In this document: in pieces, positions 1,454-18,865 of the stretch | How positions within the stretch are numbered: position 1 is the first letter of the stretch | How the letters are laid out: each line of letters begins with the position of its first letter | IMG/VR virus record: IMGVR_UViG_3300045988_011708 | Span: 1 to 18,865 of that record | From: a virus | Strand: one strand, 5' to 3' | DNA: 18,865 bases | Position numbers and translations under genes: made by a program | The notes under the pieces: model-generated | What the model was told of the DNA's origin: nothing | The model's database searches: none | The model's input: only the letters and a program-made list of their open reading frames with translations

Positions 1454-2521
1454 TTATTTTCCTAGCAATTCTCCAATAATAAGCCCAAAGTCGGCCTTGA
1501 CTTGTGAATCATCGAAACGGATTTTACCGAGCCTGTAGCCGGTGGTGAGTCGCCTTATGATATCATCTGATTTTTTGACGTACCATGTTTTTTCGTCAAC
1601 ATGGTTGGGGTCTAACGTGTAGATGGGTCTGGTATTGTCTTTGGGGATGCGTCGTGAAACGTATTGTGAAACGTGTCCGTCGCGTTCGGATGCGCTTACC
1701 CATATGCCAAATCGCGCATAGTCGGTAGTGTCCAAAATGTAGGAGAGTTCGCCGTCATTAGGTATGGGCGCTAGCAACGTGTCCGATTCGTCGCGGAATT
1801 TATTACGGATGGCATAATCCGCATAATCTTCGTCGTATTGTTCGAGAAACCGTCCGAATTTGGATTGTGCGACTTTGGCCGAGAAACCACCATAATCGGC
1901 CAATTCGAGACATACAAACCCACCGCAATATAATTTGTATTGTTGTTGATTGGCTTGTTGTGAGCCAATGTCAAGCCGGTATTTGGTGAAATACGGGTTA
2001 GCCTTCTGTACCGCGTTAGATAAAAACAATACTTTTGTCCTGTCCTGCCAGCGGTCAACGGTGTTGTAGAACTCGGAAAAACTGTTTACCTCATTGCTTA
2101 AGAATCTGAGATTGTCGGGGAAGATTTCATCGAATATAATCAAGTGTACTTTAGGATAGGCGACTGATTTCAGTCCGCCCGCTTGGGAGAGTGCTACGAA
2201 GTAGCAGCATGTGCGCCAATCTTCTTTGTCCCATGACGTTTTATGCACCTGCCCTTTTTCACCATTCACGCGGAATTCGTAGGAAGGAAAAAATTCCTGA
2301 ATGTCTTTGAAGAACGTTTCCTTACGGTGCTGCTCCACGTCCGTGCGGCGCAAGTAGATGAACTCGTAACCGTGTTTGATATATTCTTTGATGCCGTATC
2401 GTTTTGCGGCAAAAGTCTTGCCGAGTCCGCGTGCGCCGATCACGAAATTCCACGGGGCGTTGCGGGTGAGCAGGTTATGCAAGTCGTAGTAATCATCTTC
2501 GGCCAAGGTTTGCAATGCCAT
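1454..2521 (-). CDS. DNA encapsidation (packaging) ATPase, phi29 gp16-like
   Basis: Walker A NFVIGARGLGKT and Walker B HLIIFDE. The N-terminal third resembles phi29 gp16 as remembered (NFVIGARGIGKS...FIYVRR). RBS is AGGAGG. Confidence 0.9.
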   Translation of the reverse strand: MALQTLAEDDYYDLHNLLTRNAPWNFVIGARGLGKTFAAKRYGIKEYIKHGYEFIYLRRTDVEQHRKETFFKDIQEFFPSYEFRVNGEKGQVHKTSWDKEDWRTCCYFVALSQAGGLKSVAYPKVHLIIFDEIFPDNLRFLSNEVNSFSEFYNTVDRWQDRTKVLFLSNAVQKANPYFTKYRLDIGSQQANQQQYKLYCGGFVCLELADYGGFSAKVAQSKFGRFLEQYDEDYADYAIRNKFRDESDTLLAPIPNDGELSYILDTTDYARFGIWVSASERDGHVSQYVSRRIPKDNTRPIYTLDPNHVDEKTWYVKKSDDIIRRLTTGYRLGKIRFDDSQVKADFGLIIGELLGK

Positions 2522-2625: not shown

Positions 2626-2634
2626 ATTATATCA
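2626..2634 (-). promoter_or_regulatory. Extended -10 element TGATATAAT
   Basis: On the - strand, CATGTGATATAAT follows the TAG stop of the tail lysin. The same 12-mer, CATGTGATATAA, occurs at 16038..16049. No convincing -35 element. Confidence 0.45.
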
Positions 2635-2639
2635 CATGT

Positions 2640-3854
2640 CTAGAATGCGGGCGGGTTCGATTTTCCATCCCACACACTTAACAGCGAATACGCCTGATTA
2701 TAGCGATTGCTATACGGCCCGAACGGATATGTACTTAAGATATTGGCCTTGAGCTGTGCGAGATTCGACGCTTTCGGCACCTTGAGTGCATTGGCTGGAG
2801 ATTGGTGATATGCGGTCACCCACAAGATCTGCATTTTATCATCATCGTACTCCTGTGGATATCCCACGTAATCTTCGGCAAACTGCTTGCGCTGCCCCTC
2901 ATGCGACTCGCTACGCCGTGCCCATGTTTGGAATGCCGTGGCTTCCGCTTGCGTGAGATTGCGCGTAAACTCGCCACCTGATTCCATGAGTGCCGCGATC
3001 TGTGGTGCAGCTGTTTTGAACGCAGTATAGCCGGTTGGGTCTACCGTCTTCATGGCGTTGAGCACTTGTAGTCGGCGTCCGAAGCTCCATTGGGCTATGC
3101 CGATACCCTGTAAGTTGGCGGCTTCCACTGCATCCCAGCGTAGCCCAGATTCTACCGTGCCTACCACATAGAGCGCATACGAGTTTTCCGCACTGACCGA
3201 GCTGGAAGGGTGCCCCTGTCCTTGCGAGTCGGACGGTTGACCAAGGGAGGTTTTTTCGGAAAAATTATTGGCCGTTGTCTTATAGAAAATGCGGGTGCGT
3301 GCCCCGCTGTTATCTGTCTCATGCAGATACAGGTTGTCGCCTTGCCAGTGTATCCACGCTCCCCCGCGCGCGGTATCAGGGTTACCCTGATTGTTGTCGC
3401 CGGTGGGATTGTCCACGTCCGGCTTAGACATGGTACGGGGGTGCAGATAGCCTAACAGTCCGTCGATCGGAAACCATTTGAGCGCGCTAGCATCAGGATT
3501 TTGCGTAATTACGTAGATTCTGCCGTCTTTTACCCCATCATTGCCGGCGACTATGGCAACATGCGTGTATGGGGTGTACGTGCCGTATCCCCATATTGCC
3601 ACGTCACCGGCCACGGGCGTGTGTCCGCTTGCGGGAATTTGTTCGTACACCTGTTCGCACCGTGCGGATACCGGATATGACGTGTACAAGCCCCCGGCAT
3701 AGCCGGTAGGTGTTATGCAATCCTGAATAGACATGCCGTACATGTCCATGCTGTATTTAGCCCATAAGTCCCAGCATTGCGCGCCATACGCCCCGTCCAT
3801 GTCCCAAAAACGGTTTTTCGTCTGGTCAATCCACTGAGTAAAAGTAATAGCCAT
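2640..3854 (-). CDS. Tail-associated peptidoglycan hydrolase: CHAP domain plus lytic-transglycosylase-like domain (functional analogue of phi29 gp13)
   Basis: The N-terminus DMDGAYGAQCWDLW...THVAIV is a CHAP domain paralogous to the endolysin. The C-terminal part has an E-S ... GIGIAQW pattern reminiscent of SLT/GH23 domains. It sits after the appendage genes, as gp13 does. Confidence 0.75.
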   Translation of the reverse strand: MAITFTQWIDQTKNRFWDMDGAYGAQCWDLWAKYSMDMYGMSIQDCITPTGYAGGLYTSYPVSARCEQVYEQIPASGHTPVAGDVAIWGYGTYTPYTHVAIVAGNDGVKDGRIYVITQNPDASALKWFPIDGLLGYLHPRTMSKPDVDNPTGDNNQGNPDTARGGAWIHWQGDNLYLHETDNSGARTRIFYKTTANNFSEKTSLGQPSDSQGQGHPSSSVSAENSYALYVVGTVESGLRWDAVEAANLQGIGIAQWSFGRRLQVLNAMKTVDPTGYTAFKTAAPQIAALMESGGEFTRNLTQAEATAFQTWARRSESHEGQRKQFAEDYVGYPQEYDDDKMQILWVTAYHQSPANALKVPKASNLAQLKANILSTYPFGPYSNRYNQAYSLLSVWDGKSNPPAF

Positions 3855-3880
3855 ATCACCATTATAGGCGATATGGCTAT
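3847..3880 (-). promoter_or_regulatory. 11-bp perfect inverted repeat (hairpin or operator) enclosing the tail-lysin start codon
   Basis: ATAGCCATATC (3847..3857) and GATATGGCTAT (3870..3880) are separated by a 12-nt loop that contains TATAAT on the - strand. The ATG (3852..3854) lies in one stem arm. Confidence 0.6.
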
Positions 3881-3899
3881 CGTTAAGGCAGCATGGAGA

Positions 3900-5423
3900 T
3901 TACCATGCGACGGTAAAACCGCCCCCCATCAAACCATTAGGGGAGCCATGGCTACCGGTTGTGGTGTATGGCTGGATGCCGATCGTACCGCTGATGTGAT
4001 CATTACTCCCCAACACTTTGAACAAGGTGGCGTCGTTCGCTCCGTTGGATGCCATGAGAGACCATGCGTCCGGCTCGTTCGTACTATCGCTGTTGCGTTC
4101 CGCCCATTTTGGCAAGGCGTTTTTAATGTCCACGAAATTCGCGGCGGTGACGTTGCTGGCGAGATGCCAGCCGAACGTAATAAGCCCTCCCGAAGCGTTG
4201 ACGGTAAACAGTGCGAGAGTATTGGTCGAATCGCGCCATGAAAACGATTCCGTACGCCCCGTATAGTTATGGTTAATGTAATCAAGCATGTAGGACACGA
4301 TCACGTTGGTTCCGTCCGCGTTCGGGTGGATATCACCGGTCGGGAAGTACGTGTTGTTTCCCAAATTCCATGTCCACGCCCACGGTACCGCTTCCACGCC
4401 GACTTCTCGCGCGGCGGAAATACAGCTTGCGGAGTTATACCGCCAATAATTGGATACCGGTGTCCAGTCCCACATCATGGGCACAACGATAATTCGAGCG
4501 TTCGGAAACTCTCGCTTAACCCCACTGTACAGGCTTACGGCGGCGGTGCGCAATGTGCCCGAATATCCGTCGTTGGTATTGCGGCTACCGGCGATCACCA
4601 CTAATCCGACTTCCGCATGATTGTAGCTGGTGTCCGCTCTTGCATTGTTAAGCTCGGTTTGAAATGTGGTGTTTGGCGCAATGTAGCCCGCGCCAGCGAT
4701 GCAATAATTGTGTAGTACGGTATCTTCTCCCAGTCGCGAGTTGAGTACTGATGGCCATTCGCGTGTCTTGTCCGTATTCGTGCCGTACGAGTCGCCGAAC
4801 GTCACCAAGTGTCCGTTGGTCTGCGAGAAGGATTTAAGGATTCGAGCGATAGCATTATTCGCGGTGATCGCGTCCGAGCTTGCTTTATCCCACTTGGTTT
4901 TAGAGATGGTGGCGTTGTTTTCGTTGGATGCGCCCAACGCTGTGAGGATAGTGGTATTATTGGTGGCTTTTTCGGTGGCGGCGGCGGCTTCTGTGCCGGC
5001 CTTATCCCACTTGGCCTTAGAGGCGGTGGCGTGTCCGGCGGTATCGGCTCCCAATGCGGCGAGGATTGCCGTATTGGCGTGGGCCTTGCCTGCGGCGTCT
5101 GCGGCGTCCTCCTTTGCCTTAACGGCGTCCTCCATTGCCTTAACGGCGTCCGCCACTGCCTCAACGGCGTCCGTACTGGCTTTGTCCCACTTGGTTTTCG
5201 CCGCGGTCGCGTTATCCACCGTATTGTCCACAAGCAGTGCTTCCATTACCGCTTCGTCATGGGTTTCTCGCGATTCCACGCCCTCGATACGGTTCAAATG
5301 TTTTTCGAGCGTATCATCAATGGTGCGCATGGAGCCGTTATACCCGTCCCTCAGATCGGCGGGGTCATTGTCTCCATACAAATTCAAGCCGTAATTATCG
5401 GTTTTCGTATACACTGTAGCCAT
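3900..5423 (-). CDS. Tail fibre/appendage protein with N-terminal anchor motif, repeat-rich coiled-coil shaft and SGNH/GDSL-type hydrolase domain
   Basis: N-terminus YGLNLYGDNDPADLRDGYNGSMRTIDDTL. Three modules of KxKWDKAxxxA...NTxILxALGA. GDSL block I is VTFGDSYG, a block III-like motif is AGSRNTNDG, and a block V-like motif is GDIHPNADG. Confidence 0.7.
   Translation of the reverse strand: MATVYTKTDNYGLNLYGDNDPADLRDGYNGSMRTIDDTLEKHLNRIEGVESRETHDEAVMEALLVDNTVDNATAAKTKWDKASTDAVEAVADAVKAMEDAVKAKEDAADAAGKAHANTAILAALGADTAGHATASKAKWDKAGTEAAAATEKATNNTTILTALGASNENNATISKTKWDKASSDAITANNAIARILKSFSQTNGHLVTFGDSYGTNTDKTREWPSVLNSRLGEDTVLHNYCIAGAGYIAPNTTFQTELNNARADTSYNHAEVGLVVIAGSRNTNDGYSGTLRTAAVSLYSGVKREFPNARIIVVPMMWDWTPVSNYWRYNSASCISAAREVGVEAVPWAWTWNLGNNTYFPTGDIHPNADGTNVIVSYMLDYINHNYTGRTESFSWRDSTNTLALFTVNASGGLITFGWHLASNVTAANFVDIKNALPKWAERNSDSTNEPDAWSLMASNGANDATLFKVLGSNDHISGTIGIQPYTTTGSHGSPNGLMGGGFTVAW
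5092..5175 (-). repeat. Tandem 21-bp repeats (4 units) encoding heptads inside the fibre gene
   Basis: Units ...TTGCCTTAACGGCGTCCTCC / ATTGCCTTAACGGCGTCCGCC / ACTGCCTCAACGGCGTCCGTA. They encode DAVEAVA-DAVKAME-DAVKAKE-DAADAAG, a coiled-coil heptad register. Confidence 0.8.
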
Positions 5424-6629: not shown

Positions 6630-7442
6630 CTAACGGCCGAGATTGTAGGCGAGGCTTGTAGAGTAGAGTTGCGGGATATTGGTCATGTTATCCCCGCTAC
6701 CCCACATGCCCATAAAAAGATCTTCCAGCGAGTTGATTACCATCATGTCGATATTGAGCATGGTATTACGCCAGTCAAGCAAAAGCTGCGATTGCGAACC
6801 ACTCGTGCCGAGCGTATGCGACACACTATTGCCCTTGTCCGACGAGTGCGCGTAATCCGTATTGCTGGTACTGGTCGCGGTGGCCGAACTGTCCTGCTGG
6901 GTGCTCGTATGCGTGTTGCCCAGCGAGTCAGTCTGCGAGGCGCTCGTGGCGAACTGTTTAAAATCATCAATACGAGTCTGGGGGAATTCCGAGTTGAACG
7001 TCATGCTGGAATTGTCCGCCTTAGTGTCGGACGTGCTGTTTGCCGTGGACTCGTTGGACTGCGTGCCCGAAGACTTGCCGGAAGACTCGTTCGTGCTGGT
7101 CGAGTCCATCTCCTGCCGGATATCGGATGTAATGAAAGGGTCGAATTTACGTTGCGCAGATAAATATAATTGGTTGAAATAGTCCATTTGTTCGCGCATG
7201 GTACGCCCCAAATAAAAAATGAACATTTGTGGCGTTTCGCTTCCGATTTCGCGTAATGCGTAGTGGGATACGATTTTTTCGTTCAATTTCGCCCTATAGT
7301 TTTCATCGAAAATCGGATAATATTGCGAACTCAAATGTAGTTTTTCGTCCGTATTGAAACCACGGTCGATCAGATTACCGAGCGTCAACGTGTAGTCTGC
7401 CATACTGTCCTTGATGGCGTACATGCTCAAGTCCTGTGTCAT
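6630..7442 (-). CDS. Lower collar protein (phi29 gp11-like) with a Ser/Thr-rich insert
   Basis: ATGA overlap with the portal stop indicates translational coupling. Size is 270 aa versus 293 aa for gp11. The N-terminal part (YPIFDENYRAKLNEKIVSHYALREIGSETPQMF...YFNQLY) resembles lower collar proteins as remembered. Confidence 0.7.
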   Translation of the reverse strand: MTQDLSMYAIKDSMADYTLTLGNLIDRGFNTDEKLHLSSQYYPIFDENYRAKLNEKIVSHYALREIGSETPQMFIFYLGRTMREQMDYFNQLYLSAQRKFDPFITSDIRQEMDSTSTNESSGKSSGTQSNESTANSTSDTKADNSSMTFNSEFPQTRIDDFKQFATSASQTDSLGNTHTSTQQDSSATATSTSNTDYAHSSDKGNSVSHTLGTSGSQSQLLLDWRNTMLNIDMMVINSLEDLFMGMWGSGDNMTNIPQLYSTSLAYNLGR

Positions 7443-8407
7443 CGTTCGTCTTCATCCTCCTTGTTTCCATCAACATCCAGTAGACCGCCTGACGTGGTAT
7501 CATTCCATTCGATTCCAATAGGTTTGCCGGAATCGGCCATTTGCGGCCACAGTCTGTTGATCGTATCGCACGCCTGTTGACGGGATTTCAGATAGCTCAG
7601 GCGGAACACGTTGGTGCGACTGTTTCCAGCCGTGACTTCCGATTCAAGCAACCGCTCCTTCTTTTCCGTCGTGCTATTGTCGATACCTAAATAGTTGACA
7701 AGCTCGTTCCAAATCTGCGTCTTAGTGGTGATGATCTTGTCAGCCAAAAAAGGGGTGACGTTGGGAAACGTTTGGAACATGCCGGTAATATCAGCCGAAT
7801 CGTATGTGTAAATATAGGGGTCACCGTCTTCCCTTGCCTTCATGAGATTTTGCGCGGTGAGCTTGTTGGTTTCGGACGTGGCGATAATCAGCGGCACGCT
7901 GATATTATCCAAATTTACATCCAGTGCGCGGTCTGCGATGGCGAGTCGTGTCGCATAATTCCACATGACGTCAATCATCGTACATCTTAACTGGTTGTCC
8001 CAAATGGGTACGCATTCCTTGCTGCCGATCTGTGGATGCGAATAGCTGGTAGCAACCGGCTGGAATGATGTTGGATTATTATAATTGTTCACCCCGCCGA
8101 TATTGCCGGAAGTGACCATAAAACGGTTGACCCCCTTGCGTTTGTCGGGGAAAAACAGTGCGAGACCGTTTTCAAACAAAGTCAGTTCCAAGTATCTTTC
8201 GTCAATGTACGGGGGAAGGTTAGTCCATTTGAAACGTGACACGGCCAACATTTCGATCAATTTCATATACTGGTTAATTCTGAGACTCTGTCTCATTTCG
8301 GGGAGGTTCAAATTGCCCCACATGGAGCCTAAAACGCTTTGATTATCCCAGTGTGCGGCCTTGCGTGCATTATTGCGTTTACCCTGTGCATTATTGCGTT
8401 TACCCAT
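7439..8407 (-). CDS. Portal/connector (upper collar) protein, phi29 gp10-like
   Basis: FKWTNLPPYIDERYLE, IWNELVNYLGIDNSTTEKKERLLESEV and LKSRQQACDTIN match gp10 segments [43 protein letters not shown] and LKSREEACEKIN. The start is moved to the ATG at 8407 (AGGACGG RBS, 5-nt spacer); the GTG at 8413 in the ORF track leaves no spacer. Confidence 0.92.
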   Translation of the reverse strand: MGKRNNAQGKRNNARKAAHWDNQSVLGSMWGNLNLPEMRQSLRINQYMKLIEMLAVSRFKWTNLPPYIDERYLELTLFENGLALFFPDKRKGVNRFMVTSGNIGGVNNYNNPTSFQPVATSYSHPQIGSKECVPIWDNQLRCTMIDVMWNYATRLAIADRALDVNLDNISVPLIIATSETNKLTAQNLMKAREDGDPYIYTYDSADITGMFQTFPNVTPFLADKIITTKTQIWNELVNYLGIDNSTTEKKERLLESEVTAGNSRTNVFRLSYLKSRQQACDTINRLWPQMADSGKPIGIEWNDTTSGGLLDVDGNKEDEDER

Positions 8408-8425
8408 GGTCACCGTCCTAAAAAT

Positions 8426-10698: not shown

Positions 10699-10716
10699 AA
10701 AATCCTCCTAAAAACA

Positions 10717-10747
10717 ATAGGTGCGAGAATTATCCTCTCGCACCTAT
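10717..10747 (-). terminator. Intrinsic terminator between the capsid and tail knob genes
   Basis: ATAGGTGCGAGA / TCTCGCACCTAT form a 12-bp perfect stem with a 7-nt loop. On the - strand it is followed by UGUUUUUAGGAGG and the tail-knob ATG. Confidence 0.8.
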
Positions 10748-10768
10748 TTTACCTGCTATCGCCTAATG

Positions 10769-12504: not shown

Positions 12505-12780
12505 TTAGTCGAACAGATCTTCGATTGACTCGCCGTCGTCGTCGCCGTCACCGTCATTGTCGAACGGGGCGGGGTCGGTGTATCCGAGCGTGTCCATCAT
12601 GGCTTTCAATGCGGCCAATTCCTTTTCGATCGAGTCAAGTCGCGCGCTCACGTCCGGTTCGGACGGTTCCGGTTCCGGTTCTTTGGGCTTGATTTCATCA
12701 TCGACGGTTTCGGTCTGCTTCTCTTCTTCGGTGGGCGGCGGAGTGGTGTTTTCGTCGTTCTCATTGTTTGGGTCTGCCAT
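12505..12780 (-). CDS. Scaffolding protein (phi29 gp7 analogue)
   Basis: 91 aa, highly acidic, with a helical central segment. First gene after the putative late promoter and immediately upstream of the capsid gene. RBS AGGAG. The call rests on position and composition. Confidence 0.65.
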   Translation of the reverse strand: MADPNNENDENTTPPPTEEEKQTETVDDEIKPKEPEPEPSEPDVSARLDSIEKELAALKAMMDTLGYTDPAPFDNDGDGDDDGESIEDLFD

Positions 12781-12815
12781 GCAAGCTCCTATCTATTAGC
12801 AATGTTTCCACCAAA

Positions 12816-12824
12816 ATTATATCA
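12816..12824 (-). promoter_or_regulatory. Extended -10 element TGATATAAT, putative late (structural operon) promoter
   Basis: Lies directly after the strong terminator at 12845..12866 and about 35 nt upstream of the scaffold ATG. Confidence 0.55.
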
Positions 12825-12835
12825 TGCTGCGGGAG

Positions 12836-13004
12836 AAATAAAATGACCCTCCAATCACGGAGGGTCTGAATCGTCCTATCAGAGCGCAAAAGTGATGATC
12901 GTAGGGCACTACCGCCACGATAGTGATTCCATGGCCGGCGGCATTCTCAGCCGTGGCAGTCCGGCCTATGTTGTTCCCAGTCGAAAATCGACGCTCACAA
13001 GACA
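12836..13004 (-). ncRNA. Candidate structured non-coding RNA of about 170 nt (pRNA-like candidate)
   Basis: Bounded by the extended -10 TGTTATAAT (13011..13019) and the terminator at 12845..12866. It contains several mutually supporting helices (detailed in the findings). The only ORF here has a GTG start, no RBS, and runs through the terminator and the next promoter. The 5' end is estimated about 7 nt downstream of the -10. Confidence 0.5.
12845..12866 (-). terminator. Strong intrinsic terminator ending the candidate ncRNA / early transcription
   Basis: On the - strand: GACCCUCC gugauu GGAGGGUC, an 8-bp GC-rich stem. It is followed by AUUUUAUUUCU (to about 12836). Confidence 0.85.
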
Positions 13005-13010
13005 CGACAT

Positions 13011-13019
13011 ATTATAACA
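13011..13019 (-). promoter_or_regulatory. Extended -10 element TGTTATAAT overlapping the DNA polymerase stop codon
   Basis: The - strand reads ATG-TTA-TAA-T. It matches the TGnTATAAT consensus and lies at the upstream edge of the 231-nt non-coding gap. Confidence 0.5.
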
Positions 13020-14463
13020 TAACCAATGTACCGCAATCATCCATGACTTGCATGCCATGCCGAAACTTTTCGTAAGGGATGGGCTGCGTAAATAGGCTTC
13101 CGGCCATACAGATATCAACGTCCCCGTCATCCTTCCACCCTTGATATCTGTTCATTCCGAGTATGGTCAGTTTTTCGTACTTGGCTGCAATCTTCCACTT
13201 GCCTAGCCCGGTAGGGTGGATTTCGCATGACTTCACCGGCTCCCAGCCGGATAGGATGCACCCGTCCGTATTGGCATACAAAAGCCGGTCGGCGTTCTCG
13301 TGACAGACGGTCATAAGCTTTCGCCTCGCGTAGGCGTTGACCCATACGGGCACGGGAAGAAAATCGGTTTTCAGATTCGATTCCTCTCTCTGTGCGATAT
13401 CCCAATCGAGGGTTATACCGTCTTTTGACATGGGGATCATGACGGCACCTTTGGGCAGACTCGCCATTTTTCCCACTAAAGCATTCATGACCAATTTCGC
13501 CATTTGCCTTTTCTCGCCCGTCGCTTTCTGTTTCAGTTCGCCCCATTCATCGATGAATGACCTGAAGAATCCTTTGGAGCGGCGGAATTTCCAGCCGCGA
13601 ACGTGCTTGTAGACGCTCACTTCATAATTCTCGTATAGCAACTGTTGGTCTATGTCGGTCAGTACTCGCGTGATATAGCCTCGGGTTGAGGTGAGTCGAT
13701 TCAGCCCATAGACACTGCGATTGTCGAGCAAAAAGGGGTAGCCGTTTGGTTTGAGTTCCGCGCGGAACGTGAGTTCGTCGCAGTGCAACGGCATGTCGCT
13801 ATCTTCTTCGTATTTGCCTTCATACTGTTCGGGTTCGCCCCACGGCAACCATTCGTCCCGTAGGATGCTCGGATACATGCTATTGCAGTCAACGTCGATA
13901 GCTTTATCGAACATGCCTTCTCTGGCGATCATGAATCCGCCTATGTAGGCGTCATGCAGTGATTTTTTCGTGTCCGATTTTAGTTGTGGGAATTTGTCGT
14001 AATACCACTTCCACTCGCCGGACGCGAACGCTTCCATGCTCGCACCGCCCGCAGTAATCTTACACAAGCCGCGCAGGTCATACTCTCTAAGTATTGAGAG
14101 CAGTTGCGTGTCAGTCATGGTGAGCCTGCAATTCTCACGTAAAAGATTGGAAATATCGAAAAACCGTGCCGAGTTCTCACGGTCAATCCGTACGGTGAAG
14201 CTGAAAAATTTACCCTTTTTCGACACTATTGCATCCCAGCTCAAGTTAGCATTATGCTCATTGTGGGGTAATGCGTGTACGACGTGCGCGATAAAGGGGT
14301 CAAGCATTTCGGGGTCAGTCACGTAGACGGTGAGTTTTCCGCCCGACATGATGGACGCCAATAGGCGGTTAGGTGCGGTGATATCACGAAGGATGGTAGC
14401 GTCGGTAAAGCGTATGACGTTATCCGCACACCATAATCCAACCCTCTTATCCTGCACTGTCAT
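13012..14463 (-). CDS. Protein-primed family-B DNA polymerase (phi29 gp2-like), short and divergent
   Basis: YxGG motif AYIGGF. Motif A DVDCNSMYPS (Dx2SLYP). Motif B KLVMNALVGK (Kx3NSxYG-like). Motif C YANTDG (YxDTDS-like). LGKW and MAGS match phi29 LGYW and CAGM. The motif A to motif B spacing of about 133 aa equals that of phi29, consistent with a TPR1 insertion. Confidence 0.88.
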   Translation of the reverse strand: MTVQDKRVGLWCADNVIRFTDATILRDITAPNRLLASIMSGGKLTVYVTDPEMLDPFIAHVVHALPHNEHNANLSWDAIVSKKGKFFSFTVRIDRENSARFFDISNLLRENCRLTMTDTQLLSILREYDLRGLCKITAGGASMEAFASGEWKWYYDKFPQLKSDTKKSLHDAYIGGFMIAREGMFDKAIDVDCNSMYPSILRDEWLPWGEPEQYEGKYEEDSDMPLHCDELTFRAELKPNGYPFLLDNRSVYGLNRLTSTRGYITRVLTDIDQQLLYENYEVSVYKHVRGWKFRRSKGFFRSFIDEWGELKQKATGEKRQMAKLVMNALVGKMASLPKGAVMIPMSKDGITLDWDIAQREESNLKTDFLPVPVWVNAYARRKLMTVCHENADRLLYANTDGCILSGWEPVKSCEIHPTGLGKWKIAAKYEKLTILGMNRYQGWKDDGDVDICMAGSLFTQPIPYEKFRHGMQVMDDCGTLVML

Positions 14464-14490: not shown

Positions 14491-15456
14491 CTACTTTTCC
14501 ATTGCTCCAGCTTCCGCAATCCACCGGTCAAACTGCCTGCGCGAACGCTGATACCCCTCGCTATTATCGCGGAACACTGAAGTGAAACCGTGGCGGACGG
14601 GATCATATACGGTCCAGTCGAACACGATACGTGGCGCGTCCGTCTGTTCGATGAACGCTCGTTTTTGCGCTGCCGATAGTCGACGGAACCGTTTCAATCG
14701 TTTCGAGCCGAGCGTGGTAGCCAAGATCTTCTCGAACACTTCATAGTGTCCGCGTGACATGTAAGACGGCCAATTATGATCATCATACAAGTCGGGGCGA
14801 GTATCCGTCTTCCGTTTTTTGGAGGTTTTAAGTTTCTGCTCGGTACGCAAGCCCAATATTTCGGCCACGTCATGCATCTGCTCGCGCAATTCATTCCGGT
14901 GTCCGCTCTCCAATTGAGAGCGTATGAATGCTTCATCACCCAGCACGTTCGTCATTTGCAGGAAGTCCGTGAGTTTCGACGGGATGATCTGGGTGCGTCC
15001 GAAACCTTCGCCGGTGGTGCCGTCGAGTTCCGCCATGCGCTGATCGTACACGCTGCGTTGCGGCTTGGCCTGCTCCTTGTTCCATTCGTTGATCTTCCGG
15101 CGTGCCGCATTGATTTTCCGTTGCTGTTGCCTGAGCAGTTTACGTCGTTTCGCCGCTGGCTCGGCTTCTATCTGTGCGTCAGTGATAGGCGTGCGCTGGG
15201 CGAACATGTAGTCTTTTTTCGTCGGCTTTTCCACGGCACTGGCATGGTAGGGGGTTGCTTTCGCTTCCGCTATGGCCTGTTTCTTCTGCCGCGCCCACTC
15301 TTTACCCAAGGTTTTCGCGATATTGACTAATTGTTGGTCTGCGGTTTTGGCGAGATTCGAGTGAGAGTAACTGCCGAGCTGTTTGATATTGCGGGCGGCA
15401 CGGGCTTGTGCGGCCTGACGCGCCTTGACATGTTTCTGTTTGCGACTGCGGGACAT
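14491..15456 (-). CDS. Putative terminal protein (TP, phi29 gp3 analogue)
   Basis: 321-aa, strongly basic protein immediately upstream of the polymerase, as in phi29, in a genome with ITRs. Start chosen at the ATG at 15456 (GGGGG RBS 9 nt upstream) instead of the TTG at 15507 in the ORF track. No sequence homology was recognised. Confidence 0.6.
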   Translation of the reverse strand: MSRSRKQKHVKARQAAQARAARNIKQLGSYSHSNLAKTADQQLVNIAKTLGKEWARQKKQAIAEAKATPYHASAVEKPTKKDYMFAQRTPITDAQIEAEPAAKRRKLLRQQQRKINAARRKINEWNKEQAKPQRSVYDQRMAELDGTTGEGFGRTQIIPSKLTDFLQMTNVLGDEAFIRSQLESGHRNELREQMHDVAEILGLRTEQKLKTSKKRKTDTRPDLYDDHNWPSYMSRGHYEVFEKILATTLGSKRLKRFRRLSAAQKRAFIEQTDAPRIVFDWTVYDPVRHGFTSVFRDNSEGYQRSRRQFDRWIAEAGAMEK

Positions 15457-15480
15457 AGTGCGCACCCCCTGTAAGATGGC

Positions 15481-15505
15481 GAGAGCACCCAAATTGGGTG
15501 CTCTC
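15481..15505 (-). promoter_or_regulatory. Perfect 10-bp stem-loop in the SSB-TP intergenic region
   Basis: GAGAGCACCC aaatt GGGTGCTCTC. No U-run follows on either strand, so it is not a classical terminator. It lies 16..20 nt downstream of a TATAAT (15528..15533, - strand). It could be an mRNA 5' stabiliser or a processing site. Confidence 0.45.
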
Positions 15506-15539
15506 AACGAACGAACGCTACTTAACGATTATAGCGAGT

Positions 15540-15977
15540 TCACTTGGCTTCCACGCCTTCCACCGGCTCAATGCTGAAAAACTTGAATCCGCGACGGGAA
15601 CGACGTTCCACCACCTTGATTGCCAATGGTGCTTCCCAAGAGTTCGGGGTTCCGAAGATCCCGAACATGGTGTTTAATCCTGCCGCCAACGTTGGGGAGG
15701 TGGCCGCATACGCCTTATTGTCATCGGTTACGATGATGACGCGCACGGTGTTGGAGATTTCTCCCGTCTGATCGTCCGTCACCTGTACAGCCTGTGCGAC
15801 GGCATTCACCATGTTTAAGGTTTCGTTAAGGTGTTCGTCGAGCTTTTCGGCGTTCTGCAATGCCGAGTAGAGCTTGATTTTGCCCTCACGGGTGGAGGTG
15901 TCGATGAAGTGCTGGACTGTGCCCAGTTCGGTGGATTCGGTGTTGAATGCTACGAGTGCGGTGTTGGTGTTTTCCAT
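15540..15977 (-). CDS. Putative single-stranded DNA-binding protein (phi29 gp5 position)
   Basis: 145 aa. Sits between the p6-position gene and the TP gene, as gp5 does. RBS AAGGGAAGG. The call is positional only. Confidence 0.4.
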   Translation of the reverse strand: MENTNTALVAFNTESTELGTVQHFIDTSTREGKIKLYSALQNAEKLDEHLNETLNMVNAVAQAVQVTDDQTGEISNTVRVIIVTDDNKAYAATSPTLAAGLNTMFGIFGTPNSWEAPLAIKVVERRSRRGFKFFSIEPVEGVEAK

Positions 15978-16044: not shown

Positions 16045-16359
16045 CATGCCGTCATTATTTTCAATGTCGGCGTGTCGTTTATTTGTATGCTCTTCTGGGT
16101 TCCATTCCTGCGGTTCCTCAAAAGTCGCATACTTGTAAAAAGTCTCCTCATTCATGGAAACCTTTTGCGAAAAAATATTGATAGAGCGTGGGATGAAATT
16201 AGGGAACAGTTTTTTTGCACGAACCGAATACGCACGGGCGTCCTTCAAACGCCCATCGATAACATGCTCTGCTTCCATAAAATCACCGTCAACCAATTCC
16301 ATACCCTTGAGCACTGCATACACTCGGGTTCGGAAAATATCGGTTTTGGTTTTAGCCAA
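16042..16359 (-). CDS. Hypothetical early protein, possible p6-like dsDNA-binding protein (105 aa)
   Basis: TTG start 5 nt after a GGGAGG RBS. Size (105 versus 104 aa), position upstream of the SSB, an N-terminal MAK, and the C-terminal segment SMNEETFYKYATF (remembered p6: EMPVEEF.KHAS) suggest phi29 p6. The similarity is weak and recalled from memory. Confidence 0.35.
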   Translation of the reverse strand: MAKTKTDIFRTRVYAVLKGMELVDGDFMEAEHVIDGRLKDARAYSVRAKKLFPNFIPRSINIFSQKVSMNEETFYKYATFEEPQEWNPEEHTNKRHADIENNDGM

Positions 16360-16361
16360 TT

Positions 16362-16880
16362 TTACCTCCCTTGCAGTAAGATTTTTTCTAATTCATTGTC
16401 ATTATAACGTGTAGTGTCGAGTCTGTCAAAATTTTTAAACACGGCAATAATCAGGTTTCGCGCCTGTGGAGTATCGAAAATCGTACAACAGTCATACGAC
16501 GTAACACCCTTGACCGCGCACACCGCGCACCATGCAATAAGATTAGGCGGATTCACAGTGCCGTCCAAATATTCCACATCATATGTTCGGGACAATGCGG
16601 CGGCGGGTCCATCACCAATACACATGCTTCCGCAAATCTGAGACACCGTAATGACGGCTTGCGTAAACCACTCGCTAGGCGCTTCCCGCCACAGTTCGCA
16701 CAGCATGTTCACCGCACGGCAACACGTTTCAAAATCGCCATAGCCCATGTCATACCGTTTCAAATTCAATTCACGGGTATGCCCTCGCGTGGCCTTGACA
16801 ATACGTGGCGACTCCATAATCGCATCATCAAATTCCCTCATGCGATAGATCGGTGTCCGGTCATTACCGCGATTAAACAT
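16362..16880 (-). CDS. Hypothetical Cys-rich early protein (172 aa)
   Basis: Long ORF with RBS GAGAGG. Its start overlaps the stop of the upstream gene (ATGTTTAA). No family recognised. Confidence 0.7.
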   Translation of the reverse strand: MFNRGNDRTPIYRMREFDDAIMESPRIVKATRGHTRELNLKRYDMGYGDFETCCRAVNMLCELWREAPSEWFTQAVITVSQICGSMCIGDGPAAALSRTYDVEYLDGTVNPPNLIAWCAVCAVKGVTSYDCCTIFDTPQARNLIIAVFKNFDRLDTTRYNDNELEKILLQGR

Positions 16881-18425: not shown

Positions 18426-18474
18426 ATTATAGCATAAACAAAACTACGACACGCCGTAAAAACAAACGACATAC
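18426..18474 (-). promoter_or_regulatory. Internal third copy of the ITR promoter region, with extended -10 TGCTATAAT (18426..18434)
   Basis: Roughly 40 of 49 positions match ITR bases about 12..60 by eye. The match includes an identical CGTGTCGT block and GTTTGTTTT. It is followed by AAGGGAGG and an ATG. Confidence 0.6.
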
Positions 18475-18516: not shown

Positions 18517-18771
18517 TCAGTCACCGTCATTAACTGAGACAACATACTTACGATATCGACGGCCATCAATGCGGCATTTCTTCACAAGCTCAAGCTCATA
18601 ATCATCACCCAACATAAGCTCTACACAAGAAGACAACGCCGACTCAAACGAAAAAACGCTATCATCAATATCTCCACAATCTGTGACGGTAGCAGAGATT
18701 ACCCCATCGATACAAACCTCAAACGAGTTGTCTTCTGCAATCTCGCCAACAATAGCATTAAACGTAATCAT
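18517..18771 (-). CDS. Hypothetical acidic early protein (84 aa), right-terminal gene
   Basis: The ATG is 95 nt from the right end, inside the ITR, and uses the ITR-encoded RBS. The gene is followed by a terminator. Confidence 0.6.
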   Translation of the reverse strand: MITFNAIVGEIAEDNSFEVCIDGVISATVTDCGDIDDSVFSFESALSSCVELMLGDDYELELVKKCRIDGRRYRKYVVSVNDGD

Positions 18772-18865
18772 TTTATTTTTCCTTTCCCTTGAAGCGGATA
18801 ACTACACTATAACACAAACAAAAACACGACACGCCCCGAAAACAAACAACACGCCCAAAATAAAA
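18767..18865. repeat. Right inverted terminal repeat (99 bp)
   Basis: Exact reverse complement of 1..99. Confidence 0.97.
18806..18814 (-). promoter_or_regulatory. Extended -10 element TGTTATAGT inside the right ITR
   Basis: Mirror copy of 52..60. Confidence 0.5.

Follow-up and report, generated by a model that had tools for sequence, protein, structure and literature searches.

The prohead or packaging RNA (pRNA) of phage phi29 is, to our knowledge, the only known RNA that is structurally part of a viral DNA-packaging motor, and in phi29 it is bound by basic N-terminal residues of the portal. Other phi29-like phages infect Actinobacteria, Clostridia, streptococci, staphylococci, and some Gram-negative bacteria, and a pRNA has reportedly been proposed for Streptococcus phage Cp-1 as well. 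The initial annotation of the DNA studied here stated that pRNA had been documented only for Bacillus relatives of phi29; this holds for experimental work and agrees with a 2024 review that, as far as is known, confines pRNA to phi29 and its Bacillus relatives (PMC11476376), but predictions elsewhere exist. A 2020 preprint mentions the detection of pRNA in archaeal ampullaviruses. Because the GenBank record of Actinomyces phage Av-1 (NC_009643) carries a predicted "packaging RNA" (misc_RNA 16295-16402), the idea of a pRNA outside the Bacillus phages is not new. Literature searches turned up no published pRNA from Bifidobacterium or Curtobacterium phages and, for other non-Bacillus phi29-like phages, nothing beyond the Av-1 annotation and the ampullavirus mention. 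Here we describe a structured RNA element located between the DNA polymerase and scaffold genes of a Bifidobacterium podophage (IMG/VR record IMGVR_UViG_3300045988_011708; the whole stretch of 18,865 bases is referred to as the window). The element is probably a counterpart, very divergent, of the phi29 prohead RNA and possibly its very distant homologue. It differs from the earlier predictions in that dense covariation, synteny, and a second lineage support it.

A search of IMG/VR with the polymerase of the window yielded 79 loci with polymerase identities of 75-90%, and GenBank contributed five more; in all these loci, the element lay directly 3' of the polymerase stop codon. A covariance model (R1), built on the 131-nt core of the element, scored 154.6 bits at the window core and found exactly one copy per genome in 85 sources (105-157 bits); in all, each of the 90-odd relatives retrieved had a single copy at this position. 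A loose DNA pattern matched at least 119 stretches in IMG/VR, most of them chance matches on GC-rich contigs. Of 80 such loci searched with R1, 25 were confirmed, some of them on contigs not previously seen, and these loci yielded a few new variants. A tighter pattern gave at least 120 matches in bacterial genomes, and none among the matches listed resembled the core by blastn.

Covariation statistics were derived from a model-based alignment of 78 distinct sequences. Standard base pairs occupied 98.0% of the pair cells, compared with 30-52% when the partners were slid; 14 pairs had changed on both sides, and none of 500 shuffles reached any of the observed measures. We regard this comparative evidence, drawn from aligned sequences, as decisive for the existence of an RNA structure. 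The minus strand is the sense strand because the G-U pairs (139 cells) fit that strand. RNAalifold, run unguided, recovered the closing helix, the GGG/CCC junction helix, the C and E helices, and the D hairpin. The folding energy of a single sequence provided only moderate evidence because the 131-nt core by itself gave a z-score of -2.0; the predicted transcript (12836-13004, minus strand) had a minimum free energy of -65.5 kcal/mol and a z-score of -4.19, and none of 200 shuffles folded as well. Both computational checks proposed in the initial annotation, a folding energy significantly below that of shuffled sequences and covariation among relatives, thus gave positive results.

The boundaries of the RNA were indicated by its transcription signals and by the conservation profile. 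The polymerase open reading frame (ORF) occupies positions 13012-14463 on the minus strand, and the next ATG, at 12780, leaves a gap of 231 nt that contains, in order, an extended -10 element, the 131-nt core RNA, a terminator, and a second promoter. Mean identity to the window was 79% at the 3' end of the polymerase gene and 89% within the -10 element; it fell to 43% over the seven bases preceding the predicted start, rose to 86% for the core, dropped again to 56% for the linker, and reached 81% for the terminator and 99% for the second -10 element. This profile marks the putative ends of a functional RNA. The RNA promoter reads TGCTATAAT in most relatives, and the late promoter is 98.6% identical across them. 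The genome contains four TGNTATAAT sites, compared with 0.66 expected by chance, and all four lie on the coding strand at the heads of operons (18426-18434, 13011-13019, 12816-12824, and 2626-2634, minus strand). The terminator hairpin, GACCCTCC-GTGATT-GGAGGGTC in the DNA (12845-12866), is followed by ATTTTATTT, and its stem covaries between CCCUCC/GGAGGG and CCCCGC/GCGGGG. The extended -10 element, the conservation profile, and the intrinsic terminator are strong, conserved sequence signals for a predicted discrete noncoding RNA of about 167 nt in the gap. The noncoding gap, both extended -10 elements, and the strong terminator had been placed correctly at the outset, as had all the other sequence features of the initial annotation.

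It has to be considered that the gap might have no specific RNA function and represent a structured, untranslated 3' end of the polymerase operon, an element acting at the DNA level, or a 62-amino-acid gene (12817-13005). A 62-codon open frame does exist in the window, and the strong terminator closes the early operon. However, stop codons interrupt this frame between codons 2 and 59 in 76 of 82 relatives (at codons 2, 10, 22, 28, 38, and 46, among others), and indels in the frame are not multiples of three, so the coding frame was rejected. In addition, the 14 compensatory pairs and the strand-specific G-U pairs indicate selection on RNA structure, and the core, with its mean identity of 86%, is better conserved than the adjacent polymerase coding sequence (79%). 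We therefore find an absence of RNA function hardly tenable, and a coding or terminator-only role is very unlikely.

The core is predicted to form a three-way junction, closed by pairing of its 5' and 3' ends and carrying a C/E arm, with a 5'-strand bulge and a short E helix, as well as a D hairpin (Table 1). The two parts of the closing helix, P1a and P1b, are separated by an asymmetric 2x4 internal loop. In P1a, 99.7% of the cells were paired, with one position alternating among U-G, U-A, and C-G; in P1b, 100% were paired, and a G-C pair was replaced by A-U in 6 distinct sequences. The closing helix as a whole contained one compensatory pair. The small hairpin P2 was paired in 99.1% of the cells; its variation comprised 13 wobble changes and a single replacement of G-C by A-U. 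Alternatively, the P2 bases could possibly pair with the 3' linker and lengthen the closing helix; the pairs of this extended A-helix model are nearly invariant, so it is not separable from the P2 hairpin. The GGG/CCC junction helix was paired in 100% of the cells, nearly invariant, and without covariation, and the D helix adjoins it with a 0-nt linker. The best-supported helices were the D hairpin, in which four of five pairs showed compensatory changes and 99.7% of the cells were paired, and the C helix (CAU-A-GGCCGG/CCGGCC-AUG, with a 1-nt bulge on the 5' strand), in which six of nine pairs did so. The D stem is probably extended by a sixth, U-G pair, as judged from alignment columns 92 and 101 (U-G in 50 sequences, C-G in 19, and U-A in 9). 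The E helix of the inner hairpin (CGGC-UGAGAAU-GCCG) was 99.7% paired and almost invariant. Between the junction helix and the closing helix, the UACGAU segment (12898-12903) was strongly conserved, with T101, A102, C103, and G104 invariant and A105 and T106 identical in at least 90% of the sequences; it may be a protein-binding site or the alternative-fold partner of the small hairpin region.

Three helices drawn by hand in the initial annotation were present in this fold, namely, the GAGCG/CGCUC closing helix, the small hairpin with the AUUUU loop, and the long CAU-a-GGCCGG hairpin with its CGGC tip and 7-nt bulge. Two of its details required revision. The proposed UCGU/ACGA extension of the closing helix was rejected, since it falls in the unconserved spacer (43% identity) between the -10 element and the start, outside the RNA, and the CACU/AGUG hairpin described as weak is instead the best-supported helix.

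Table 1. Positions of the RNA element, its parts, and associated features (window coordinates unless another genome is named)
Feature	Position	Strand	Remarks
Extended -10 promoter of the RNA, TGTTATAAT	13011..13019	-	Overlaps last Leu codon and stop codon of polymerase gene
Core RNA ("domain I"), 131 nt	12873..13003	-	From predicted start, G13003, to end of closing helix
Closing helix P1a, 5' strand GUCUU	12999..13003	-	Pairs with AGGAC, 12873-12877
Closing helix P1b, 5' strand GAGCG	12992..12996	-	Pairs with CGCUC, 12882-12886
Small hairpin P2, UCG-AUUUU-CGA	12981..12991	-	Follows closing helix
Junction helix, 3 bp, GGG	12976..12978	-	Pairs with CCC, 12904-12906
C/E arm	12930..12970	-	C helix of 3+6 bp, 7-nt bulge, 4-bp E helix, 7-nt loop UGAGAAU
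CE bulge ACUGCCA	12954..12960	-	On 5' strand; complementary to D loop
D hairpin, CACUA-UCGUGGCGG-UAGUG	12907..12925	-	5-bp stem; loop has GUGGCG(G), complementary to bulge
3' linker, 17 nt, UACGAUCAUCACUUUUG	12887..12903	-	Starts with UACGAU
Intrinsic terminator ("domain II")	12836..12866	-	GACCCUCC-GUGAUU-GGAGGGUC and U-run
Second extended -10 promoter, TGATATAAT	12816..12824	-	Late promoter for 91-aa protein and capsid operon
Portal (upper collar)	7439..8413	-	PHROG 2038; extra basic N-terminus, MGKRNNAQGKRNNARKAAH
Packaging ATPase	1454..2521	-	PHROG 2150, E = 2.9e-59
Curtobacterium phage RNA, unannotated	Ayka (L329) 4205-4375; also in L331-L336		Just upstream of scaffold gene
Region of phage BadAztec1 with extended -10 and structured RNA of ~115 nt	L085 12680-12857	-	RNA closed by GUGAGCG/CGCUCAC; followed by GC hairpin without U-run

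The complementarity between the CE bulge and the D-loop segment UGGCGGU (12911-12917), which had been noticed in the single sequence, was kept and covaried among the relatives. All 32 bulge/loop combinations seen retained it, with at least 5 pairs each, and the core bulge/loop pairs were paired in 97.7% of the cells, compared with 22-77% when the partner was slid. The bulge G changed to A (column 52) only together with a C-to-U change in the loop (column 99), and A52 was never found with C99; the exchange of G52-C99 for A52-U99 occurred in three distinct alignment sequences (L084, L003, and L074) and in the L157/L158 variant. The outermost pair proposed (columns 50 and 101) was better explained as the sixth pair of the D stem. 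In random trials with a single sequence, a 7-nt bulge and a 9-nt loop shared a complementary run of at least 6 bases in 2-4% of cases; the match in one sequence would thus be unremarkable, and it is its conservation and covariation across relatives that count. A second loop interaction in the initial annotation, between the terminator loop GUGAUU and AAUCAC (12923-12928), was rejected. Both sequences are present, but the pairing shows no covariation and clashes with the D helix; AAUCAC is the 5' strand of that helix, where it covaries with the D 3' strand, and it changes by transitions only, which wobble-pair with any G/U-rich sequence. The terminator loop itself (12853-12858) was identical in 80 of 82 relatives despite compensated changes in the stem, which suggests a sequence-specific role; no covarying partner for it was found among them.

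An independent transcription unit of this kind could also encode a trans-acting phage small RNA that functions in host takeover, as an anti-defence decoy, or in mRNA regulation, its bulge and loop forming a compacting intramolecular pseudoknot. The conserved E loop (UGAGAAU/UGAAAAC), terminator loop (GUGAUU), and linker start (UACGAU) would suit such a role, as would the failure of any Rfam family to match, and a pseudoknot and a kissing pairing look alike in sequence. However, no target complementarity was identified, and the match to phi29 pRNA helix by helix would have to be coincidence, as would the syntenic position in a phage whose gp16/gp10 motor is without any other known adaptor. Moreover, the single copy in each relative retrieved fits a core rather than an accessory function. 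We consider a small regulatory RNA quite improbable.

The similarity to phi29 pRNA, for which element lengths were taken from the Rfam consensus structure, is almost helix for helix in the central arm. The C helix comprises 3+6 bp in this RNA and 5+4 bp in phi29, with a 1-nt 5'-strand bulge in both; the 5'-strand CE bulges measure 7 and 9 nt, respectively, and the E helix is 4 bp in both, with loops of 7 and 6 nt. The C-to-D linker is 4 nt here and 3 nt in phi29, the D helix 5-6 bp and 6 bp, and the D loop 7-9 nt and 5 nt; neither RNA has a linker between D and the closing helix. At the junction, this RNA has linkers of 5 and 4 nt, compared with 1 and 3 nt in phi29. The core is 131 nt of a total of about 167 nt, compared with 118 nt of 174 nt in phi29. 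In both RNAs, the 5' and 3' ends pair, a 3' domain lies beyond the core, the bulge is complementary to the D loop, and the gene has its own promoter and follows the polymerase end of the early region. In phi29, the pRNA gene is found at the genome end under promoter A1, where it closes the early operon after gene 2 (polymerase) and a few small genes, whereas the present gene lies between the polymerase and scaffold genes of a unidirectional genome. This RNA also differs in an extra hairpin and an extra 3-bp junction helix, in its GC content (56%, compared with 41%), and in the predicted strength of the bulge/loop duplex, which has 6-8 pairs and -12.8 kcal/mol, compared with 4 pairs and -3.7 kcal/mol in phi29. 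No sequence or covariance-model similarity to phi29 pRNA was detectable. Bacillus pRNAs are themselves related by structure and not by sequence, with kissing sequences that differ in length and with different junctions (PMC4201828).

The genome that encodes the RNA carries a phi29-type packaging motor. Perfect 99-bp inverted terminal repeats at positions 1-99 and 18767-18865 show that the window is a complete linear phi29-like genome of the protein-primed type, whose other hallmark, a B-family DNA polymerase, matches PHROG 1907. All long ORFs lie on the minus strand, and the gene order is as follows: small early genes, a 338-amino-acid protein, the polymerase, a 91-amino-acid protein, the major head protein, a tail protein, the portal, the lower collar, an endolysin, and a gp16-type packaging ATPase. 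The nearest records are Bifidobacterium phage BP1 (88% identity), a human faecal scaffold, and Bifidobacterium dentium phages BD811P1-3 (73-75%). The ATPase aligns to phi29 gp16 (PDB 7jqq) over residues 6-318 of 332 (E = 5.9e-36), spanning both domains, the C-terminal domain included; by analogy, it is the presumed protein partner of the closing helix. The portal aligns from residue 46 onward to phi29 gp10 (PDB 1h5w) from residue 24 onward (E = 4e-29), and about 22 additional, strongly basic residues precede the part that can be aligned. These alignments bear out the earlier claim of gp10 and gp16 homologues, both of which are full-length. The portal N-terminus (8350-8413) contains a nearly duplicated basic motif, GKRNNA-Q-GKRNNA-RK. 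The TGNTATAAT site at 2626-2634 sits just upstream of the packaging ATPase gene, and this gene seems to have its own promoter, apart from the remaining late operon.

A similar element was found in the phi29-like phages of Curtobacterium, the polymerases of which are about 31% identical to that of the window. Seven of these phages were compared (Ayka, Prophecy, Ellison17, Pize, Reje, Trapezoid, and Penne), and the corresponding gap of about 190 nt, which precedes the scaffold gene, was conserved in at least 15 Curtobacterium phage records. In the Ayka RNA (z = -5.73), the closing helix and a small hairpin are followed by a C helix of 7 bp, a 5'-strand bulge of 7 nt (AUUGCAG), a short E helix of G-C pairs capped by a UUGAAA loop, and a D arm with the loop CUUGCA; then come a 3' linker and a terminator hairpin of 17 bp. 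Across the seven phages, 89% of the cells were paired, compared with 32-45% when slid, and the C helix contained four compensatory pairs; a bulge/loop pair was U-A in three phages and C-G in three, and the D arm was poorly resolved with seven sequences. The two RNAs have in common the order of closing helix, small hairpin, C helix, and 7-nt 5'-strand bulge, followed by an E helix of 3-4 G-C pairs, the D arm, a single-stranded linker, the terminator, and the scaffold gene, and the E-loop motif YUGAAAC is common to the Curtobacterium RNA and a divergent Bifidobacterium-phage copy (L074). The Curtobacterium RNA differs in having one small ORF between it and the polymerase gene, a four-way junction without the GGG/CCC helix, and a partly palindromic kissing sequence (UGCA). 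The Curtobacterium and window RNAs share an architecture. Their common descent is plausible but unproven because the sole signal of R1 in distant genomes was a local, insignificant similarity (E ~ 1) to the C/E arm in Ayka and Pize.

The honeybee Bifidobacterium phages BadAztec and BadAargau have an extended -10 element (TGCTATAGT/TGCTATAAT) inside the polymerase Leu and stop codons, and in BadAztec1 (polymerase about 31% identical), TGCTATAGT lies at the Leu-stop position that matches the window promoter. A structured RNA follows, the long stem of which differs by compensatory changes between BadAztec1 and BadAargau2 (L208); its inner layout is unlike that of the window RNA. A search of IMG/VR for relatives of BadAztec returned only BadAztec itself. 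The annotated Av-1 packaging RNA, at the right end of the genome, is overlapped by two ORFs of the opposite strand. Its folding is no better than that of shuffled sequence (z = +0.53), and neither R1 nor Rfam matched it. A second Av-1 unit of about 100 nt (4505-4612; z = -3.66), bounded by a promoter and a terminator, lies near the polymerase gene, between ORF7 and ORF8 and before the head genes, and may be the better RNA candidate. In Eggerthella phage LE1-1 (L330), another phi29-like phage of Actinobacteria, no gap follows the polymerase gene; the larger gaps precede the block of encapsidation genes (12524-12732) or occur near the end (15443-15621), and any such RNA, if present, would sit elsewhere than after the polymerase.

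Several findings weigh against assigning the RNA of the window to the pRNAs. The Rfam model RF00044 (Phage_pRNA), which scored phi29 at 145.4 bits as a positive control, found no match at its gathering threshold (100 bits) in the whole window or at E <= 10 in positions 12700-13150. Because nothing was found even at E <= 10, homology to Bacillus pRNA is not demonstrable, the RNA falls outside RF00044, and only the architecture is common to that family and this RNA. When all of Rfam was searched, with gathering thresholds for the window and E <= 10 for the locus, the only match was one to mir-223, attributable to chance. With filters off, R1 found no significant match in BadAztec1, Av-1, the Curtobacterium phages, or LE1-1. 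The closing helix, of 5+5 bp, is far shorter and more interrupted than the phi29 A helix and is followed by an extra hairpin or irregular extension, and the asymmetric 2x4 internal loop takes the place of the phi29 CCA bulge. An intramolecular pseudoknot would give the same bulge/loop covariation. In addition, three 3' bases of the D loop can pair inside the hairpin (columns 92-101, 93-100, and 94-99), and these local pairs also fit the variation, so part of the apparent kissing covariation is shared with a rival local structure; the closed D hairpin is possibly an alternative state. Finally, no second promoter follows the RNA of the BadAztec phages, and for this reason, it could be a late-mRNA leader. 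The proposal of a candidate pRNA thus holds for a structured RNA with its own promoter and terminator and a pRNA-like architecture, it is not borne out by RF00044, and the packaging role would follow by analogy with phi29.

The BadAztec arrangement, in which the structured region is apparently continuous with the late-gene leader, also favours the possibility of a cis-acting regulatory element at the early/late boundary, either an attenuator or a processive antitermination RNA resembling the put elements of phage HK022. In the latter case, the nascent RNA would modify polymerases that had started at its promoter, and these would then pass the terminator at 12845-12866 and later post-capsid terminators, whereas transcription begun at the late promoter would end behind the capsid gene. 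Like put, the RNA is a structured nascent transcript with a phage promoter immediately before it and terminators beyond it; it lies directly between promoter and terminator, where the replication and structural modules meet, and additional terminator-like hairpins occur after the capsid gene (10716-10748) and after the gene for a 507-amino-acid protein (3846-3881). However, a strong, nearly invariant promoter (98.6% identity) directly follows the terminator, so read-through is not needed for late expression, and no antiterminator pairing with the terminator stem was visible, the stem covarying only with itself. The HK022 put elements are two simple stem-loops of about 70 nt and are not known to have a closing 5'/3' helix, bulge/loop complementarity, or a dedicated terminator. 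A three-way junction with a bulged arm and a complementary hairpin loop is instead the architecture of pRNA, and it recurs in the Curtobacterium phages, again before a 17-bp terminator-type hairpin. A cis-acting role, the foremost rival reading, appears doubtful on this evidence.

From the architecture of the RNA and the motor proteins of the phage, we infer a packaging function as in phi29. The bulge of each RNA molecule would pair with the loop of its neighbour to form a ring, the C/E/D end of which would dock on the prohead and surround the basic portal N-termini. The closing helices would point outward and scaffold the gp16-type ATPase, which would pump the protein-capped linear genome into the head, and the RNA would depart before tail attachment.

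On balance, we lean towards the view that this is a true prohead RNA and that RNA-scaffolded motors are old and widespread among phi29-like phages. If so, RNA-scaffolded packaging would not be a peculiarity of Bacillus phages; it would occur in abundant Bifidobacterium phages of the human gut and, in a related form, in Curtobacterium phages, with the RNA gene between the polymerase and scaffold genes and with a kissing duplex far stronger than that of phi29. A covariation-supported candidate in cultivable Bifidobacterium phages (BP1 and BD811P1-3), together with the sister candidate in Curtobacterium phages, makes the question directly testable. If confirmed, these RNAs would provide new self-assembling RNA modules with a kissing interaction of 6-8 bp for RNA nanotechnology. 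They would also provide an evolutionary series for the origin of pRNA and would separate the essential features of the RNA, such as the C/E/D geometry, from those that vary freely, such as the A helix.

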